Shown: positions 2,577 to 62,853 of the stretch, piece after piece
How the letters are laid out: each line of letters starts with the position of its first letter
Position numbering within the stretch: the stretch's first letter is position 1
Assembly (NCBI GenBank): GCA_049696835.1
Contig: JBAVUP010000128.1
Coordinates: forward strand, 25,085-89,084
DNA length: 64,000 bases
Direction of reading: 5' to 3'
From: Desulfobaccales bacterium
Lineage (GTDB): Bacteria > Desulfobacterota > Desulfobaccia > Desulfobaccales > 0-14-0-80-60-11
Notes under the pieces: generated by a model
The model's input: the letters and a program-made list of their open reading frames with translations, nothing else
Told to the model about the DNA's origin: nothing
Database searches by the model: none
Translations under genes and position numbers: made by a program

Positions 2577-2767
2577 TCACCCCCCTGACCCTGGCGCTGG
2601 TCTTCGTAATGCTATATCTTAACACCAGGTTCATGGCCAAAGTGACCATCGTCTTTCTGTGGTCACCTCCTTTTAATGGAACTGCTGATTTACCCCTGCA
2701 TTTTCGCTGTGGGAAGTGGAACTTCGAGGTGAAAAGGCGAAAAATTGCTTAAGCCAAGAGTGATTCC

Positions 2768-4162
2768 ATGAGTGAACCCCTCGACCGGAACAGGACTGAT
2801 ATAGGCTCGGTGGTATCGATTCGCGGCAGCGTGGTGGATGCGCGTTTTCCCCAACGGCTTCCTCCCATTAACCATCAGCTCAGCGCCGGTCCTGAGGGAA
2901 GCATCGTCATCGAAGTGGTGAGCCATCTGAGCTCCGAGATCGTGCGGGGCATGGCCTTGACGCCCACCCACGGGCTGGCCCGGGGCTCGCCGGTGCTGGA
3001 CCTGGGCCACCACCTGAAAGTGCCGGTGGGGAAAAGGCTCCTGGGCCGGATGTTCAACGTCTTCGGTGCGGTGATCGATGAGAAGGAGGCAGTATTGGGG
3101 GGCGAATGGCGCTCCATCCACCAGCCGTCCGTACCTTTGACCCAGCGCACCGTCGTCTCCGAAATCTTTGAAACGGGCATCAAGGCAATCGACGTGCTGG
3201 CCCCCCTGGAGCGGGGCGGCAAGGGGGGGCTGTTCGGGGGCGCCGGAGTCGGGAAAACCGTGTTGATCACCGAGTTGATACACAACACGGTGGGGCGGCA
3301 CCAGGGCATCAGCATCTTTTGCGGCATCGGCGAAAGATGCCGGGAGGGGGAGGAACTCTACCGGGCCATGAGCGAAGCCGGGGTCCTGGACAGTACCGTC
3401 ATGGTCTTCGGCCAGATGAACGAACCGCCCGGGGCCCGCTTCCGGGTGGGACACGCGGCCCTGACCATGGCGGAATACTTTCGGGATGATGCCCGGCAGG
3501 ATGTGTTGCTGCTGATCGACAACATCTTCCGGTTCATCCAGGCAGGTTCCGAGGTGTCGGGCCTCATGGGGCTGATGCCCTCACGCCTGGGATATCAGCC
3601 AACCCTGGCTACGGAGATCGCCGAACTGGAAGAGCGTATCTGTAGCACCGGCTCCGGGGCTATCACCTCGGTGCAAGCGGTGTACGTGCCCGCCGACGAT
3701 TTCACCGATCCCGCGGCCACCCATACCTTCGCCCACCTGTCCTCCTCCATTGTGCTGTCCCGGAAGCGGGCCAGCGAGGGGCTCTATCCCGCCATGGAAC
3801 AGCTGCAGTCGGGCTCGAAGATGCTGGTGCCTCTCATCGTCGGTGAGCGCCACTACCGCATCGCCCAGGAGGTGCGCCGGACTCTGGCGGGCTATGATGA
3901 GCTAAAAGATATTATCGCCATGTTGGGACTTGAGGAACTCTCCCGGGAGGACCGGCGCACGGTGTTTCGGGCCCGGCGGTTGGAGCGGTTCTTGACCCAG
4001 CCGTTCTTCAGCACCGAGCAATTCACCGGCCAGGCGGGCAGGATGGTGCCCCTGGCCGACGCCCTGGAAGGCTGCGAGCGCCTCCTGAATGACGAATTTG
4101 CCGATTATCCTGAGAGTTCCCTCTATATGATCGGCAAGATAGACGAAGCCAGAAAGCCATGA
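2768..4162 (+). CDS. atpD: F-type ATPase beta subunit (N-type operon)
   Basis: Walker [18 protein letters not shown]; DNIFRF and YVPADD motifs. First gene of a D-C-Q-B-E-F-A-G order. Confidence 0.95.
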
Positions 4163-4551
4163 GACTCACGGTGCTGTTACCCACGGAAATCCTGGTGGAC
4201 GAAGAGGTCGCCAAGGTGGTGGCCGAAGCCCAAAACGGCTCCTTTTGCCTCTTGCCCCGGCACATCGACTTTGTGGCGGCCCTGGTGCCGGGCTTGCTTT
4301 CCTTTGTGAAAAGCGCGGACGGGGCTGAAGAATTCCTGGCAGCGGATGAAGGCCTCCTGGTAAAGTGCGGCCCACAGGTGCTGGTCTCCACCCGGCAGGC
4401 GGTGCGGGGGGGAGAGTTGGGGCTCCTCCGGGAGACCGTGGAGAAGACCTTCAAGGTCTTGACCGACCAGGAAAAGCGGACCCGCACGGCCCTGGCCAAC
4501 CTGGAGGCCAACTTCATCCGGCGATTGCTCAAGTTGGAAGAGTATGCCTGA
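4159..4551 (+). CDS. atpC: F-type ATPase epsilon subunit
   Basis: 130 aa; 4-nt overlap with the atpD stop; position and size fit epsilon. Confidence 0.8.
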
Positions 4552-4870
4552 ACCGCAAGACACAGAAAAGCCACCGGTCCCGGAGGAGGAATTCTCCCGG
4601 CAGGTGCGGCGGAAAGAAGCCCGGAAGCTCAAGGCCAAGGGCCGCCAGGGAGAAGGGGTCTGGTTCGGCCTGGGGATGTTCGGCCTGATCGGCTGGTCGG
4701 TGGCCCTGCCGGCGGTGGCCGGGGCGCTGCTGGGGGCCTGGATCGACCGCACCTGGCCCAGCCGCTACTCCTTTACCCTGATGCTGCTCCTGGGCGGCAT
4801 CATCCTGGGCGCGCTCAACGCCTGGCATTGGGTCGGCCAGGAGCGCCAAAAAATCGAAAAGGATGAGTGA
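4544..4870 (+). CDS. atpQ: AtpQ/AtpI-like small membrane protein of N-ATPase operons
   Basis: 108 aa. Basic N-terminus followed by two TM helices (GVWFGLGMFGLIGWSVALPAVAGALLGAWIDR...LMLLLGGIILGALNAWHWV). Sits between atpC and atpB. Confidence 0.65.
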   Translation: MPEPQDTEKPPVPEEEFSRQVRRKEARKLKAKGRQGEGVWFGLGMFGLIGWSVALPAVAGALLGAWIDRTWPSRYSFTLMLLLGGIILGALNAWHWVGQERQKIEKDE

Positions 4871-4876
4871 CTAACC

Positions 4877-5605
4877 ATGGAACTCAGTCTGGATAGCCTG
4901 GTGCTCTGGCAGCGGGGGCCGGTGCTGCTGAACGCCACCATTCTCTACACCTGGCTGGTGATGGCCCTCCTGGTGGTGGGGTCCTGGCTGGGGACCCGCA
5001 AGCTGTCCACCGGCGCCCAAATCTCCCCCTGGCAAAACCTGCTGGAGGTCCTGGTGGCGGGCGTTAGGGAGCAGATTCACCAGATCAGCCAGCAGGACCC
5101 GGGGCCGTACCTGCCGTTTATCGGCACGCTGTTCATCTTCATCTCTTTTTCCAATCTCCTGACTATTTTCCCGGGCTACCACCCGCCCACCTATTCCCTG
5201 TCGACCACCGCGGCCCTGGCCCTCTGCGTGCTGGCGGCGGTGCCTTTCTTCGGGATTGCCCGACAGGGACTGCGCGGCTACCTGAGCCACTACCTGAAAC
5301 CCACGGTGTTGATGCTGCCTTTTCATATTCTGTCCGAACTGACCCGCACCCTGGCCCTGGCGGTGCGACTCTTCGGCAACGTCATGAGCGGCGCCATGAT
5401 CGGGGCCATTCTCCTGGCGGTGGTGCCGCTGTTTTTTCCCCTGATCATGCAACTGCTGGAGCTGTTGATCGGCCAGGTTCAGGCCTTTATCTTCGCGGTG
5501 CTGGCCACCGTCTATATCGCCTCCGCCGCCCAGGCCCATGAAGAAAAGAGAGAAGTTATCTTACAAAGGCCGATTACCAAGCAGCAAGGGAGCGAGAAAT
5601 CATAG
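4877..5605 (+). CDS. atpB: F-type ATPase a subunit
   Basis: Polytopic protein with the conserved stator Arg in LAVRLFGNVMSG. Confidence 0.9.
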   Translation: MELSLDSLVLWQRGPVLLNATILYTWLVMALLVVGSWLGTRKLSTGAQISPWQNLLEVLVAGVREQIHQISQQDPGPYLPFIGTLFIFISFSNLLTIFPGYHPPTYSLSTTAALALCVLAAVPFFGIARQGLRGYLSHYLKPTVLMLPFHILSELTRTLALAVRLFGNVMSGAMIGAILLAVVPLFFPLIMQLLELLIGQVQAFIFAVLATVYIASAAQAHEEKREVILQRPITKQQGSEKS

Positions 5606-5619
5606 GAGGACACAAAAAC

Positions 5620-61500: not shown

Positions 61501-61535
61501 ACATTGCCTATCCCCGATTTTGTTGACTGCTCTTT

Positions 61536-62735
61536 TCAACCCAGCCATCTAAACTTCCCGGCCGCGCCCGCAGTAAATAATTCCCCCCAAAAATCCGGGC
61601 TTCCCCCCAGGGGAATGAATCCCAGGGCCGCCCGCTTGCCGGGTTCAAGACTCCCCAATTCGCCATCCCGGCCCAGGGCCCGGGCCCCGTTTAAGGTCCC
61701 CAGGCGTAGCCAAAATTCCCCGGCGTAGGCGGGAAAGTTCTGGTACAGCCACAGCATGTCGCCGAACAGATTCAGATCCCGGTTGCCCGCCAGGGAATCA
61801 GTGCCCAGGGCCAGATTCACCCCCGCGGCCACCAGCTCCGGCACTGGCGGCGTCCCGGCCCCGGTGTACCGGTTGGCCCGGGGGCAGAGCACCAGCCAGG
61901 TCCCGGTGTCGGCCAAGAGCTCACAATCCCCGGGGCTGAGCCAGGCCCCATGGACCGCCAGGGTCCGGGATCCCAGAAAATCTAAGCCGTGGAGGTAGGC
62001 CGGGGGGCTTACCCCGGGGGGCTGAAACTCCGGCACCCACCGCCCCCGGCGCTGCAGCAAGCCCTCGAAGAAACCGTTGCCCCCGGTAAGAAAGTCCAGC
62101 TCCGCCCGGGATTCCGCCAGGTGCACCATCTGGGGGCCCTGGCGCGCGGCGTTCCATTGATCGACTGCCCGGAACAGGGCCGCGGACACCGAATACGGGG
62201 CATGGGCCGCGGCCGAGATGCAGCCCGCGGCTGCCACCTCAGGTTGCCCGAAAAAAGGAAAAACCTCCGGGAGCTCAAACTGCTCCACCAGATTGAACCC
62301 CAGGCATTCATAAAACAGATGGTACGACAGGGGGCTTTGCGCAAGGGGCGGCCAGGAGGTCCCGGTGTTGGTAACCTCCCCCACCAGGGCCGTGCCGCTC
62401 CGCCACAAGGTGTCAATGCCGTGGGCGATGCCGGCCCTTTTCTCTCCCGGAGACAGCGCCCCATACGCCGCCAGGGTCGCCTCCAGCCAGTCCTCCCAGC
62501 GTTCCTGCGGCGCTACCTTTCCCGTCAGGGCGGAGAACTCCAGGTGGACGTGGCAGTTCACCACCCCCGGTAGAATGGCCCCGGCCCCATGTTCACAGAT
62601 CAACCCCTTGAACCCGGACAAGACCTCGGCCGCAGGACCCACCGGACCAATCCGGTCCCCGGCCACCACCACTGCTCCGTCCCGGATGGGGGGCCCACTT
62701 ACCGGCAATACCCAGCTACTCACATGCGCAATCAT
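61536..62735 (-). CDS. Metal-dependent amidohydrolase/deaminase (aminofutalosine deaminase-like by context)
   Basis: Intact HxH (VNCHVHLEF) in a chlorohydrolase-like layout. Lies between mqnA and the nucleoside phosphorylase. Confidence 0.75.
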   Translation of the reverse strand: MIAHVSSWVLPVSGPPIRDGAVVVAGDRIGPVGPAAEVLSGFKGLICEHGAGAILPGVVNCHVHLEFSALTGKVAPQERWEDWLEATLAAYGALSPGEKRAGIAHGIDTLWRSGTALVGEVTNTGTSWPPLAQSPLSYHLFYECLGFNLVEQFELPEVFPFFGQPEVAAAGCISAAAHAPYSVSAALFRAVDQWNAARQGPQMVHLAESRAELDFLTGGNGFFEGLLQRRGRWVPEFQPPGVSPPAYLHGLDFLGSRTLAVHGAWLSPGDCELLADTGTWLVLCPRANRYTGAGTPPVPELVAAGVNLALGTDSLAGNRDLNLFGDMLWLYQNFPAYAGEFWLRLGTLNGARALGRDGELGSLEPGKRAALGFIPLGGSPDFWGELFTAGAAGKFRWLG

Positions 62736-62739
62736 ATTT

Positions 62740-62778
62740 CAGTTGCCAGTAAGCAGTGAGCAGTGAGCAAGAAGTGAC
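62740..62778. repeat. Heptamer array (CAGTNNG)n abutting the amidohydrolase start
   Basis: CAGTTGCCAGTAAGCAGTGAGCAGTGAGCAAGAAGTGAC. Confidence 0.85.
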
Positions 62779-62813
62779 ACTCGACTGCGATGAATTGCGG
62801 TAAATTCAACTTT

Positions 62814-62853
62814 CTTCACCTTTTTCCCTTTTTCCCTTTTTCCCTTTTCGCCC
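62814..62853. repeat. 8-nt tandem array (CCTTTTTC)n after the phosphorylase stop
   Basis: CTTCACCTTTTTCCCTTTTTCCCTTTTTCCCTTTTCGCCC. Confidence 0.9.

Follow-up and report, generated by a model that had tools for sequence, protein, structure and literature searches.

A stretch of 64,000 nucleotides (nt) from a Desulfobaccales bacterium (GenBank assembly GCA_049696835.1, contig JBAVUP010000128.1, positions 25,085 to 89,084 of the forward strand), referred to here as the window, was analysed for short tandem arrays of 7-nt and 8-nt units lying between its genes. The window (G+C ~62%) encodes iron-sulphur (Fe-S) flavoproteins of hdr/mvh type, a liv-type ABC transporter, menaquinone and UbiA/UbiX-type genes and a V/A-type ATPase. 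In a search of 185,579 species genomes, the nearest loci belonged to metagenome-assembled genomes of Desulfobacca, Desulfobaccales and Syntrophobacterales (71-89% amino-acid identity); the closest loci being of Desulfobaccales type, the host is therefore not a cyanobacterium, in agreement with what an earlier note, made from the sequence alone, had read from the gene content. The arrays lie at the ends of the spacers with a fixed polarity, and about half of them form inverted pairs that close the spacer.

Periods 1-15 were all screened by one rule (a minimum of 21 nt, three copies and 85% match), and the expectation was derived from 100 third-order Markov simulations of the 64-kb window. Seven arrays of period 7 and three of period 8 were found, against 0.13 and 0.02 expected, respectively, an excess of the kind that the earlier note had envisaged; periods 2-5 and 9-15 gave no array in the 64 kb, and both period-6 arrays lay within coding sequence. 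Tandem Repeats Finder (TRF, score of at least 30) recovered 13 of the arrays listed in that note, with copy numbers mostly of 3-6, while three others (2728-2745, 45989-46012 and 61362-61387) were degenerate, with 2-3 imperfect copies of unit families that recur in relatives. The presence of at least 15 short arrays with a 7/8-nt period, as reported in the note, and their reality were thereby confirmed. One entry had to be amended: the CAGTNNN array at 37999-38087 does consist of heptamer units, which form the CAGTNNN/ACTGNNN arms of a hairpin followed by a T-run rather than a single direct array. Perfect arrays and higher-order 14-nt periods were also present. All 7/8-nt arrays were located outside real coding sequence, as had been stated; several fell inside over-extended open reading frames (ORFs), yet upstream of the orthologue-conserved start, and only 32693-32717 overlapped the stop codon of its upstream gene, by a few bases. 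No family overlapped any array in a scan of the window against Rfam 15. The four divergent spacers of at least 25 nt contained no 7/8-nt array except two copies of ATATAGTA at 11269-11284, a number too small for a test of a promoter role.

Loci compared with the window carry L-numbers (L001, L036, L103 and so on), which label relatives, other-phylum controls and plasmids alike. In 408 kb surrounding the orthologous liv operon of 22 relatives, 54 period-7 and 8 period-8 arrays were found, nearly all intergenic, and 625 kb surrounding a second operon (hdr) in metagenome relatives held 44 and 6, respectively; fewer (17 and 2) were present in 840 kb of unrelated control loci. Period-7 'arrays' in L063 (~1120) and L073 (29) lay inside livH coding sequence as chance hydrophobic repeats, and were excluded. 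The arrays, of which the 64-kb window has at least 15, are a property of the lineage; they are dispersed across loci and relatives and come from a small set of recurring unit families. The note had named three outcomes that would speak against its proposal, and the opposite of each was observed: enrichment outside the window, a strong positional bias and retention of arrays at orthologous spacers.

Position and composition were surveyed in 102 spacers of at least 50 nt at five orthologous junctions, the relatives in these statistics not being phylogenetically independent. Fifty-two of the spacers contained 82 arrays; median distances were 5 nt downstream of the stop codon for post-stop and 10 nt upstream of the start codon for pre-start arrays, and 61 of the 82 were within the terminal 10% of the spacer. 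Post-stop arrays contained more G than C in 29 cases versus 5, and pre-start arrays more C than G in 30 versus 8 (Fisher p = 3.5e-8); in 41 of 50 spacers, the G skew was higher over the first 35 nt than over the last 35 nt. The G-rich post-stop unit types were GGTTTTC, CAGTNNG/C, GGNGAAAA, GGGTTCT and GGGATCA, and the pre-start types were their G-poor complements GAAAACN, ACTGACN/CTNACTG, TTTTCNCC, AGAACCC and GCTGAAA. By tally, 11 of the 12 window arrays belonging to a known-type family conformed to this polarity, the exception at 2728 being the sole case of a left-type (post-stop) unit on the start side.

A complementary partner within 400 nt was present for 44 of 94 arrays, compared with 1 in a reverse-only control. 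In the liv set, the two 45-nt ends of a spacer paired with each other at -27.2 kcal/mol, compared with -16.8 kcal/mol for permuted ends (z -9.8, 0 of 2000 permutations), and the corresponding values in the hdr set were -26.2 and -20.5 kcal/mol (z -6.2). In 34 closed spacers the median distance was 0 nt from stop to stem and 7 nt from stem to start, and the stem had ~30 pairs including uninterrupted runs of 13-26 bp. Since the stem is flush with the stop and falls 7 nt short of the start, the effective stop-to-start distance would be ~8 nt. Three paired structures are present in the window:

Positions 53631-53656, minus strand: left arm of the livM>livG spacer, GGUUUUCUGUUUUCUGUUUUCGGUG in mRNA sense, 2-5 nt past the stop of a livM-like permease gene (53660-54532), complementary to 53436-53473 (TRF 53635-53654).
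Positions 53474-53630, minus strand: loop of the livM>livG hairpin, AT-rich and non-conserved, containing a 39-codon ORF.
Positions 53436-53473, minus strand: right arm of the livM>livG spacer, four copies of GAAAACA running into the GUG of a livG-like ATPase gene (52710-53435) that has no Shine-Dalgarno (SD) sequence (TRF 53437-53467).
Positions 53425-53670, minus strand: predicted fold of this spacer, -73.5 kcal/mol, z -4.8, with ~26 consecutive arm-to-arm pairs and the livG GUG included in the base.
Positions 58317-58350, minus strand: left arm of the ubiX>ubiA spacer, GUUUUUC-type, 4 nt past the stop of a flavoprotein (UbiX-like) gene (58353-58931) (TRF 58321-58349).
Positions 58243-58280, minus strand: right arm of the ubiX>ubiA spacer, CGAAAAA/CGAGAAA units with a higher-order period of 14 nt, reaching to within 8 nt of the ATG of a UbiA-family gene (57377-58236) (TRF 58244-58279).
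Positions 58228-58360, minus strand: predicted fold of the spacer between the ubiX-like and ubiA genes, -39.9 kcal/mol, z -3.7.
Positions 37999-38087, plus strand: terminator-like hairpin between convergent genes, with CAGTNNN/ACTGNNN arms and then a U-run.
Positions 37990-38095, plus strand: predicted fold of this hairpin, -45.5 kcal/mol, z -4.9, followed by the U-run.

The arrays were kept at the five junctions in ~60 relatives, while their AT-rich loops could not be aligned. The livM>livG loop was wholly different between relatives, and no family or homology was detected for the 39-codon ORF in that of the window. L002 and L004 share ~95% identity in aligned (largely coding) DNA, yet their livM>livG loops are unrelated and both arms have switched together, from GTTTTCY/RGAAAAC units in the one to GTTTTRG/CYAAAAC in the other. 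At the junction between an Fe-S gene and an hdrC-like gene, a left (CAGTTAG/CAGTAAG/CAGTGAG)n array faces a complementary (CTAACTG/CTCACTG/CTTACTG)n array in many relatives; the window and L081 have AACCCAG as the right array instead. Turnover is thus fast, concerted and complementarity-preserving rather than a slow point-by-point covariation.

The genes behind the arrays differ from their tight-junction orthologues in the region just upstream of the start codon. The livH-livM-livG-livF-CoA ligase operon is syntenic in all relatives compared, and its four junctions range from overlaps of 4 nt (ATGA) to 11 nt up to spacers of ~1000 nt. Starts that follow a right array had a median anti-SD duplex energy of -1.5 kcal/mol, none reaching -6, compared with a median of -9.4 kcal/mol and 73% at or below -6 for tight-junction orthologues of the same genes; the SD-less starts next to arrays that the earlier note had pointed out are confirmed. 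In paired spacers, the start region (-25 to +3) is predicted to pair almost wholly with the 45 nt past the upstream stop (23 of 23, 19 of 20 and 21 of 21 paired bases in the examples). At the livG start, the mean unpaired probability over positions -18 to +3 was 0.15, and 23 of 23 paired bases joined the region just past the livM stop. An SD-like run is often retained at the 3' end of the upstream gene. A 'split ribosome-binding site', in which the hairpin would bring this run to the start, was considered and rejected: worked examples gave an unpaired distance of ~12-20 nt, more than direct SD-AUG spacing allows, and termination-reinitiation is therefore preferred.

The reading that we favour, with a probability of roughly 0.55, is that the arrays are STRR-like (short tandemly repeated repetitive) sequences that are, or derive from, the ends of small, hairpin-forming insertion elements at stop/start junctions of co-transcribed genes, where the stem loops out the insert and aids coupling. 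A complete element would consist of a G-rich array right past the upstream stop, then a loop whose content may be a cargo gene, nested palindromes or junk, and finally a complementary C-rich, G-poor array right before the start. In the transcript the two arrays would pair into a stem of ~30 bp, which would loop out the insert, place stop and start ~8 nt apart in effect and restore the tight or overlapping junction geometry of relatives. The start region would be buried at the stem base until the stem is opened by a ribosome that ends translation of the upstream gene, and the downstream gene could, we propose, then be translated by termination-reinitiation without an SD of its own. From the modelled folds we infer that looping-out would preserve translational coupling. 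Slippage and copying from one arm to the other would alter the number and sequence of the units, and variants would persist only if their arms still pair.

The predicted stems are also long enough to serve as RNase III substrates, and would be natural ones, like the rRNA versions of this element type. An account by RNA processing or stability only, in which the hairpins would be REP/BIME-like (repetitive extragenic palindrome/bacterial interspersed mosaic element) or RNase III sites that set cistron levels with no translational coupling, could draw on the long uninterrupted stems in transcribed spacers, on the excision of the rRNA counterparts by RNase III (PMC4990558), on the one terminator-like hairpin with a U-run, and on the many other GC-rich palindromes in the same spacers. 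A U-tract follows the stem only at 37999-38087, however, and is missing from the intercistronic hairpins; after cleavage, the downstream cistron would begin with a short SD-less leader and its translation would still have to be explained, and solo unstructured arrays would go unaccounted for. Processing as the whole explanation is considered improbable, and it is compatible with a role of the stems in looping out inserts rather than exclusive of it.

The remaining 7-nt arrays of the window have no complementary partner:

Positions 32693-32717, minus strand: post-stop array, CAGUUAG CAGUAAG CAGC, overlapping the stop of an Fe-S gene (32711-33160) (TRF 32694-32714).
Positions 32597-32638, minus strand: pre-start array, 5.7 perfect copies of AACCCAG, 1 nt before the ATG of an hdrC-like gene (32128-32595) without SD; predicted single-stranded, z +0.25 (TRF 32597-32636, 5.7 perfect copies).
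Positions 51661-51693, minus strand: post-stop array, GGGAUCA-type, directly past the livF-like stop (TRF 51662-51693).
Positions 51624-51656, minus strand: pre-start array, 4.6 copies of GAAAACC/GAAAACA, 13 nt before the ATG of an AMP-binding (CoA-ligase-like) gene; unstructured, z +1.1 (TRF 51626-51655).
Positions 62740-62778, minus strand: pre-start array, CUCACUG/CUUACUG-type, 14 nt before the ATG of an amidohydrolase gene (61536-62735); z -0.8 (TRF 62747-62769).
Positions 45989-46012, plus strand: degenerate post-stop array, GGUUUUC-type, 2 nt past the stop of a PAS-GGDEF gene (43338-45986).
Positions 61362-61387, minus strand: degenerate pre-start array, AGCUGAN-type, upstream of a menaquinone-biosynthesis gene (60505-61338) and followed by an SD-like AAGGGAG.

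Three window spacers combine a left-type with a non-complementary right-type array and are predicted to be unstructured (z +0.25, +1.1 and -0.8); 62740-62778, for instance, is not complementary to the array at 62814-62853 in the same spacer, and 32693-32717 has no complementary partner within the window. The suggestion that arrays act as unstructured RNA spacers fits this unpaired subset. If the arrays are the ends of insertion elements, those without a partner would be half-elements, leaving an unstructured, G-poor and SD-less leader before the start. Their units recur in relatives: (CAGTTAG/CAGTAAG/CAGTGAG)n at the place orthologous to 32693-32717 in metagenome relatives, AACCCAG at the hdrC-like site of L081, GAAAACC/GAAAACA at the livF>CoA-ligase junction of L001, L004, L006 and L013, and the AGCUGAN family, in paired form, in L010 and L011. 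In the CAGT family, to which 32693-32717, 62740-62778 and 37999-38087 of the window and arrays of relatives belong, the variable positions of post-stop arrays were mostly TAG, TAA or TGA (CAGTTAG, CAGTAAG, CAGTGAG and CAGTAGC); given the 7-nt period, each of the three reading frames then meets a stop codon no more than 21 nt away from that of the gene itself.

For the 8-nt family, a link to a known element type was found. In other-phylum control loci, the livH>livM spacer contained a small gene between inverted heptamer arrays, which Pfam assigns to the bAvd-related four-helix bundles of PF05635, '23S rRNA-intervening sequence protein' (E = 2e-39 in L036 and 6e-32 in L063, L071 being similar); in L072 and L073, only N- and C-terminal PF05635 stubs were left between the arrays. 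Eight loci of the Desulfobaccales clade (L089, L100, L102, L103, L156, L157, L160 and L161) carried a PF05635 gene at the hdr site, in the order Fe-S gene stop, (GGNGAAAA)n, PF05635 gene, (TTTTCNCC)n, ~10 nt and ATG of an HdrA/MvhD-like gene, and the surrounding gene order was that of the window minus strand from 31989 down to 24526. The window features belonging to this family are the following, the element being named after its intervening-sequence protein (IVP):

Positions 27121-27401, minus strand: spacer orthologous to the PF05635 site, by synteny in L156, L157, L160 and L161 and by alignment.
Positions 27162-27200, minus strand: right-type 8-nt array, UUUUCGCC-type, marking the right end of the hdr-locus IVP-type element, ~40 nt before the HdrA/MvhD-like start (24751-27120) (TRF 27177-27199).
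Positions 28333-28367, minus strand: left-type 8-nt array, GGCGAAAA-type, directly past the stop of a DUF3795 gene (28366-28842) (TRF 28334-28367).
Positions 52464-52502, minus strand: right-type 8-nt array, UUUUCGCC/UUUUUCCC in mRNA sense, before the livF-like start; right terminus of an IVP-type element whose left terminus is missing in the window (TRF 52466-52496).
Positions 62814-62853, minus strand: left-type 8-nt array, 3.8 copies of GGGAAAAA, ~7 nt past the stop of a PNP_UDP_1 gene (62860-63759) (TRF 62819-62848).
Positions 2728-2745, plus strand: weak two-copy 8-nt array, GGTGAAAA GGCGAAAA, 22 nt before an ATP-synthase alpha/beta-family gene (2768-4162).

In the spacer at 27121-27401, GC-rich palindromes have replaced the left array and most of the PF05635 gene; the gene's final ~35 nt, in which 7 nt are deleted, are retained together with the right array and the leader. 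The ends of the PF05635 elements matched the window arrays at 27175, 28334, 52464 and 62829 (84-94% over 30-49 nt, non-array flank included) and, to the same extent, the ends of livG>livF spacers in six genomes; 52464-52502 matched the right end of the L103/L100 elements including the non-array flank, and the GGCGAAAA-type array of 28333-28367 was found at the same place in L156, L157 and L160. Within the window, 27175-27200 and 52464-52489 are 100% identical over 26 nt although 25 kb apart. These end matches and identical copies identify the 8-nt arrays as termini of a PF05635-element family rather than products of local slippage: they are the terminal repeats of an element that carried PF05635 and has lost it at the hdr site of the window. 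The stretch 27402-28244 was also considered as a cassette between inverted 8-nt arrays, and was rejected; it holds a ferredoxin-like gene of native composition, conserved in place in relatives, and is therefore not cargo. For the 7-nt families the shared architecture is observed, and we infer a common origin with the PF05635 element, whose cargo was seen next to heptamers only in other phyla.

The same results bear on neutral simple-sequence repeats (SSRs), that is, on a lineage-specific 7-nt slippage bias of the replicative polymerase with neither function nor a link to any element. Heptanucleotides are the top class of long SSRs in most prokaryote genomes, for which slippage was proposed (Mrazek 2007, as summarised in PMC4679880), and the 14-nt higher-order periods and perfect arrays point to recent slippage; the fast turnover of spacers between close relatives and a lack of G-U asymmetry in the stems (see below) would fit as well. 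Slippage does not predict, however, that units come from a small recurring repertoire rather than from arbitrary local sequence, that two loci share an identical 26-nt array with its variant units in a particular order, that end position and G/C polarity are strict, that arms remain complementary while loops randomise, or that PF05635 genes are associated in several phyla. An explanation by slippage alone has little chance of being correct, and the idea that units differ through local origin or independent slippage was not upheld: about half of the arrays are inverted pairs, unit types follow the polarity, and the 8-nt arrays are a dispersed family.

Array architecture around PF05635 genes is common to several phyla. 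When 72,556 plasmids were searched by tblastn with a PF05635 protein, 26 records were obtained, 23 of them cyanobacterial (Nostoc 10, Calothrix 4), and 17 loci (15 cyanobacterial plus Gemmatirosa and Azospirillum) were examined with a relaxed array detector. An array with a 7-8-nt unit was detected on at least one side in 14 of the 17, with repeats visible by eye in the other three (Anabaena 90, Picosynechococcus and Azospirillum), and the flanks paired at z <= -4 in 11 of the 17. The arm upstream of the ORF was G-rich and SD-like (TCAGGAG, AGTAGGG, AGGGTGT, AAAAGGG, GGAGATA), and its C-rich complement lay downstream. Several of the plasmid genes were inserted flush between co-directional genes, for example cas6/cas4 (Anabaena 90, Pseudanabaena) and cmr2/cmr3 (Picosynechococcus). 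Array-flanked PF05635 genes were in this way observed within CRISPR-Cas operons in L167 (Anabaena sp. 90 pANA02), L176 (Pseudanabaena) and L168 (Picosynechococcus; cas10/cmr2-cmr3). L179 (Azospirillum lipoferum 4B plasmid AZO_p2, 14401-14730) has a PF05635-like ORF and inverted GGACAGA/GGACGGA-type repeats in a stretch with no annotated gene, and could be a classical rRNA intervening sequence (IVS).

A bolder reading, which we regard as doubtful, is that the STRR-type arrays of distant phyla (cyanobacteria, Desulfobaccales, Nitrospirota, Omnitrophota, Planctomycetota and Gemmatimonadota) are the cis-acting ends of one operon-invading, IVS-like class with a pentameric PF05635 (S23p/Avd-like) cargo, the protein binding about one unit per subunit and mobilising the element or governing translation or processing at every array-bearing junction. 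If so, orphan arrays such as those in the window would constitute a post-transcriptional regulon, and both STRRs and the S23p family would have a function.

Protein binding may also be considered as an explanation in its own right, with each unit as a site and the array recruiting a multimer that sets the expression of neighbours, either on DNA (IHF/HU) or on RNA (S1, cold-shock protein, CsrA, PF05635). The combination of conserved cores with variable positions (CAGT+NNN, GTTTTC+N, GGNGAAAA) resembles spaced recognition motifs, and copy numbers cluster at 3-6; similar paired sites in Geobacter metallireducens have been read as global-regulator sites (PMC2700814), Xanthomonas S23p is a homopentamer as cited in PMC4990558, and one hairpin adjoins a gene for a hibernation factor fused to a cold-shock domain. 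On the other hand, one genome has many unrelated unit families that swap at the same junction, for which many proteins would be needed, and protein sites do not predict complementarity of the arms. We consider this unlikely as the primary explanation. Cold-shock proteins have been proposed as binders of heptamer repeats. The fusion gene (37415-37996, plus strand), directly 3' of which lies the CAGT-heptamer hairpin, joins an N-terminal S30AE/HPF hibernation domain to a C-terminal cold-shock domain, unlike the usual C-terminus of long HPF.

Slipped-strand changes in copy number that switch or tune the downstream gene in the manner of phase variation were also proposed. Tandem repeats are hypermutable, heptamer copy number varies between Coxiella strains (PMC4990558), and copy numbers vary between the relatives studied here; the genes concerned, however, sit in operons of core metabolism (liv transporter, hdr/mvh, menaquinone synthesis) and are not surface or virulence genes, the arrays lie neither between promoter elements nor inside coding frames, and stems with repeated arms tolerate register shifts. 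Contingency loci are accordingly held to be very improbable.

Several points weigh against reading the arrays as ends of insertion elements that loop out in the transcript. The sense strand was the more stable in 30 spacers and the antisense strand in 33, and G-U pairs made up 145 of 1598 pairs in sense and 157 of 1564 in antisense; with neither measure asymmetric, selection on pairing in the sense RNA is not shown over maintenance in the DNA, for which template switching in quasi-palindromes would be one route. The end-flush geometry and the SD loss would follow passively from palindromic insertion into a junction of 1-5 nt. Only three paired structures are present in the window, most arrays being solo or with a non-complementary partner, and the statistics across relatives carry the phylogenetic dependence mentioned above. 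The PF05635 gene itself is absent from the window and was not found beside 7-nt families in the Desulfobaccales loci examined, the loops of which hold other ORFs or nothing recognisable, and the flanking arrays in Pseudanabaena are direct rather than inverted. At E <= 1e-10 the PF05635 family had 4826 homologues, the best 120 of which were all at least 80% identical to the L103 protein, and every contig checked, for four of these hits, placed the gene at the hdr site; given this identity and the shared site, the gene looks like a long-term, stable and vertically inherited resident there, unlike an actively mobile element. No target-site duplication was found flanking the arms, and within the window the loops are unique and only the arrays recur, so that the elements do not qualify as miniature inverted-repeat transposable elements or transposons. 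We know of no transposition mechanism, target-site duplication or enzyme for them.

Tandem heptamers were recognised in cyanobacteria in 1990 and, in 2007, as the most abundant long SSR of prokaryotes. To our knowledge, no function or origin is accepted for them, and the S23p/PF05635 family and the rRNA IVS are equally unexplained. STRR1 and STRR3, said to go back to Mazel et al. in 1990, reportedly have the units CCCCAGT and CAACAGT, to which the CAGT/ACTG-type units found here are similar, not identical. The likeness to cyanobacterial STRRs seen in the earlier note is well founded, extending to the heptamer period, the intergenic dispersal, hairpins between co-transcribed genes, CAGT/ACTG units and the shared association with PF05635. 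In Nostocales, 7-bp STRR hairpins are located between hupS and hupL and have been suggested to stabilise mRNA or couple translation (PMC2670836); the hupS-hupL repeats of Nostoc, Anabaena and Lyngbya likewise are few-copy 7-nt tandem arrays of few unit families with intergenic dispersal and intercistronic hairpins. The present arrays differ in their Desulfobaccales-like host, in their unit sequences and in the extra 8-nt family, and the comparison adds the position flush with stop and start, the G/C polarity and the SD loss. A further cyanobacterial parallel is the P6b stem of the Nostoc trnL intron, composed of two 7-nt repeat motifs (PMC4476775).

Also close in architecture are the 23S rRNA IVS with an S23p/PF05635 ORF (Coxiella, Leptospira, Brucella, Xanthomonas). 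That of Coxiella was described as a 'selfish' stem-loop cut by RNase III, with a decaying S23p ORF behind 2-3 strain-variable GACAGAT heptamers (PMC4990558). Shared features are the inverted-repeat stem, a loop of lower G+C and 5' tandem heptamers that vary in number between strains; a PF05635 ORF occupies the loop at the hdr site of relatives, has decayed to a ~35-nt stub in the window and was not found with the 7-nt families of this clade. The elements described here reside in protein-operon spacers rather than in 23S helix 25 or 45 and have arms made wholly of tandem repeats. For the rRNA elements, excision by RNase III was demonstrated. In marine Beggiatoaceae, cyanobacteria and Bacteroidetes, TAACTGA heptamers abut start codons without ribosome-binding sites (MacGregor 2015, PMC4679880). 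The Beggiatoaceae arrays resemble those of this study in that forward arrays end a few nt upstream of starts and in their units, which are near-identical to the CAACTGA/CTAACTG/ACTGACN found here, and differ in comprising, in Beggiatoa, essentially one unit, in direct repeats with one inverted case, as opposed to many families of which half are inverted pairs. The paired tandem-repeat sites of Geobacter metallireducens, read as IHF/HU global-regulator sites (Aklujkar 2009, PMC2700814), are pairs of 3-5 repeats of 7-9 nt on opposite strands at variable distance, multicopy and found for example at proB-proA; their units are different, and no stop/start geometry or cargo gene was described. In the long SSRs of Mrazek et al. 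2007, as far as the summary of that work goes, heptanucleotides also predominate and units that are not multiples of three are confined to non-coding DNA; that class is a statistical one explained by slippage, with no account of pairing, polarity, dispersed identical copies or cargo. REP/BIME elements are single imperfect palindromes of ~35 nt mobilised by RAYT transposases. Those of enterobacteria are likewise dispersed intercistronic operon hairpins that affect mRNA segments, but the arms here are tandem heptamers and no RAYT gene was seen. Phase-variable contingency loci differ from the arrays in both position and gene functions.

Desulfobaccales, unrelated anaerobes, are a new lineage for STRR, long-SSR or IVS-type elements, which are abundant there. 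Among the regularities, some of which were not found described before, are the position flush with stop and start, the G-rich 5' and C-rich 3' arms, the joint change of both arms and the loss of SD sequences; the comparative evidence for a hairpin-closure design and the cross-phylum link between heptamers and PF05635 go beyond what was found described. A literature search of incomplete coverage returned no paper linking S23p or four-helix-bundle genes to STRR or heptamer repeats generally. The three puzzles of heptamers, S23p and IVS could be joined in one model of hairpin-closed inserts in operon junctions, which would be tolerated because folding restores the proximity of stop and start. In practical terms, gene callers over-extend ORFs through the arrays, the arrays probably break metagenome assemblies, and array spacers may serve as safe landing sites for new genes within operons. 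Two livM>livG hairpin loops contain longer ORFs, an AT-rich one of 185 amino acids in L012 (11357-11914, plus strand; PD-(D/E)xK-like '...FIEVKRKD...' motif by eye) and one of 221 amino acids in L023 (700-1365, plus strand; sub-threshold DUF429 hint), neither with a significant family match; two different ORFs at this place suggest that hairpin-closed spacers accept cargo besides PF05635 genes.

Other repeats share the spacers with the arrays. A small dispersed palindrome, CGTTCCCAAG-N5-6-CTTGGGAACG, is nested in array-bounded spacers of the window (52573-52600, 52636-52662 and 61447-61474) and was also found in L002, L004, L008, L015, L023 and L117, with one more copy in L004 than in L002, as if recently inserted. 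GC-rich palindromes of several families (for example GTAGGGGCGGG..CCCGCCCCTAC, GTAGGGTGCGTCTTACGCACCAT and CCCCCTCCCC..GGGGAGGGG) fill the spacers at 24256-24525, 27121-27401, 31990-32127, 46091-46175, 48511-48707, 49311-49344 and 60417-60517, and in relatives occupy the same junctions as heptamer hairpins. The sole Rfam match in the window, unrelated to the arrays, was an int-alpA RNA at 20056-20133 on the minus strand (37 bits, gathering score 35.8); the stretch 18000-22000 has a G+C of 54%, compared with ~63% elsewhere, and several short ORFs, and may be an integrated mobile element. A 936-nt 'spacer' left by the crude gene caller at 40924-41859 has a minus-strand translation (...LFVTGTDTDVGKTWVAA...) with the look of a dethiobiotin-synthase-type P-loop, and is, as judged from this translation, probably a real gene, not non-coding DNA.

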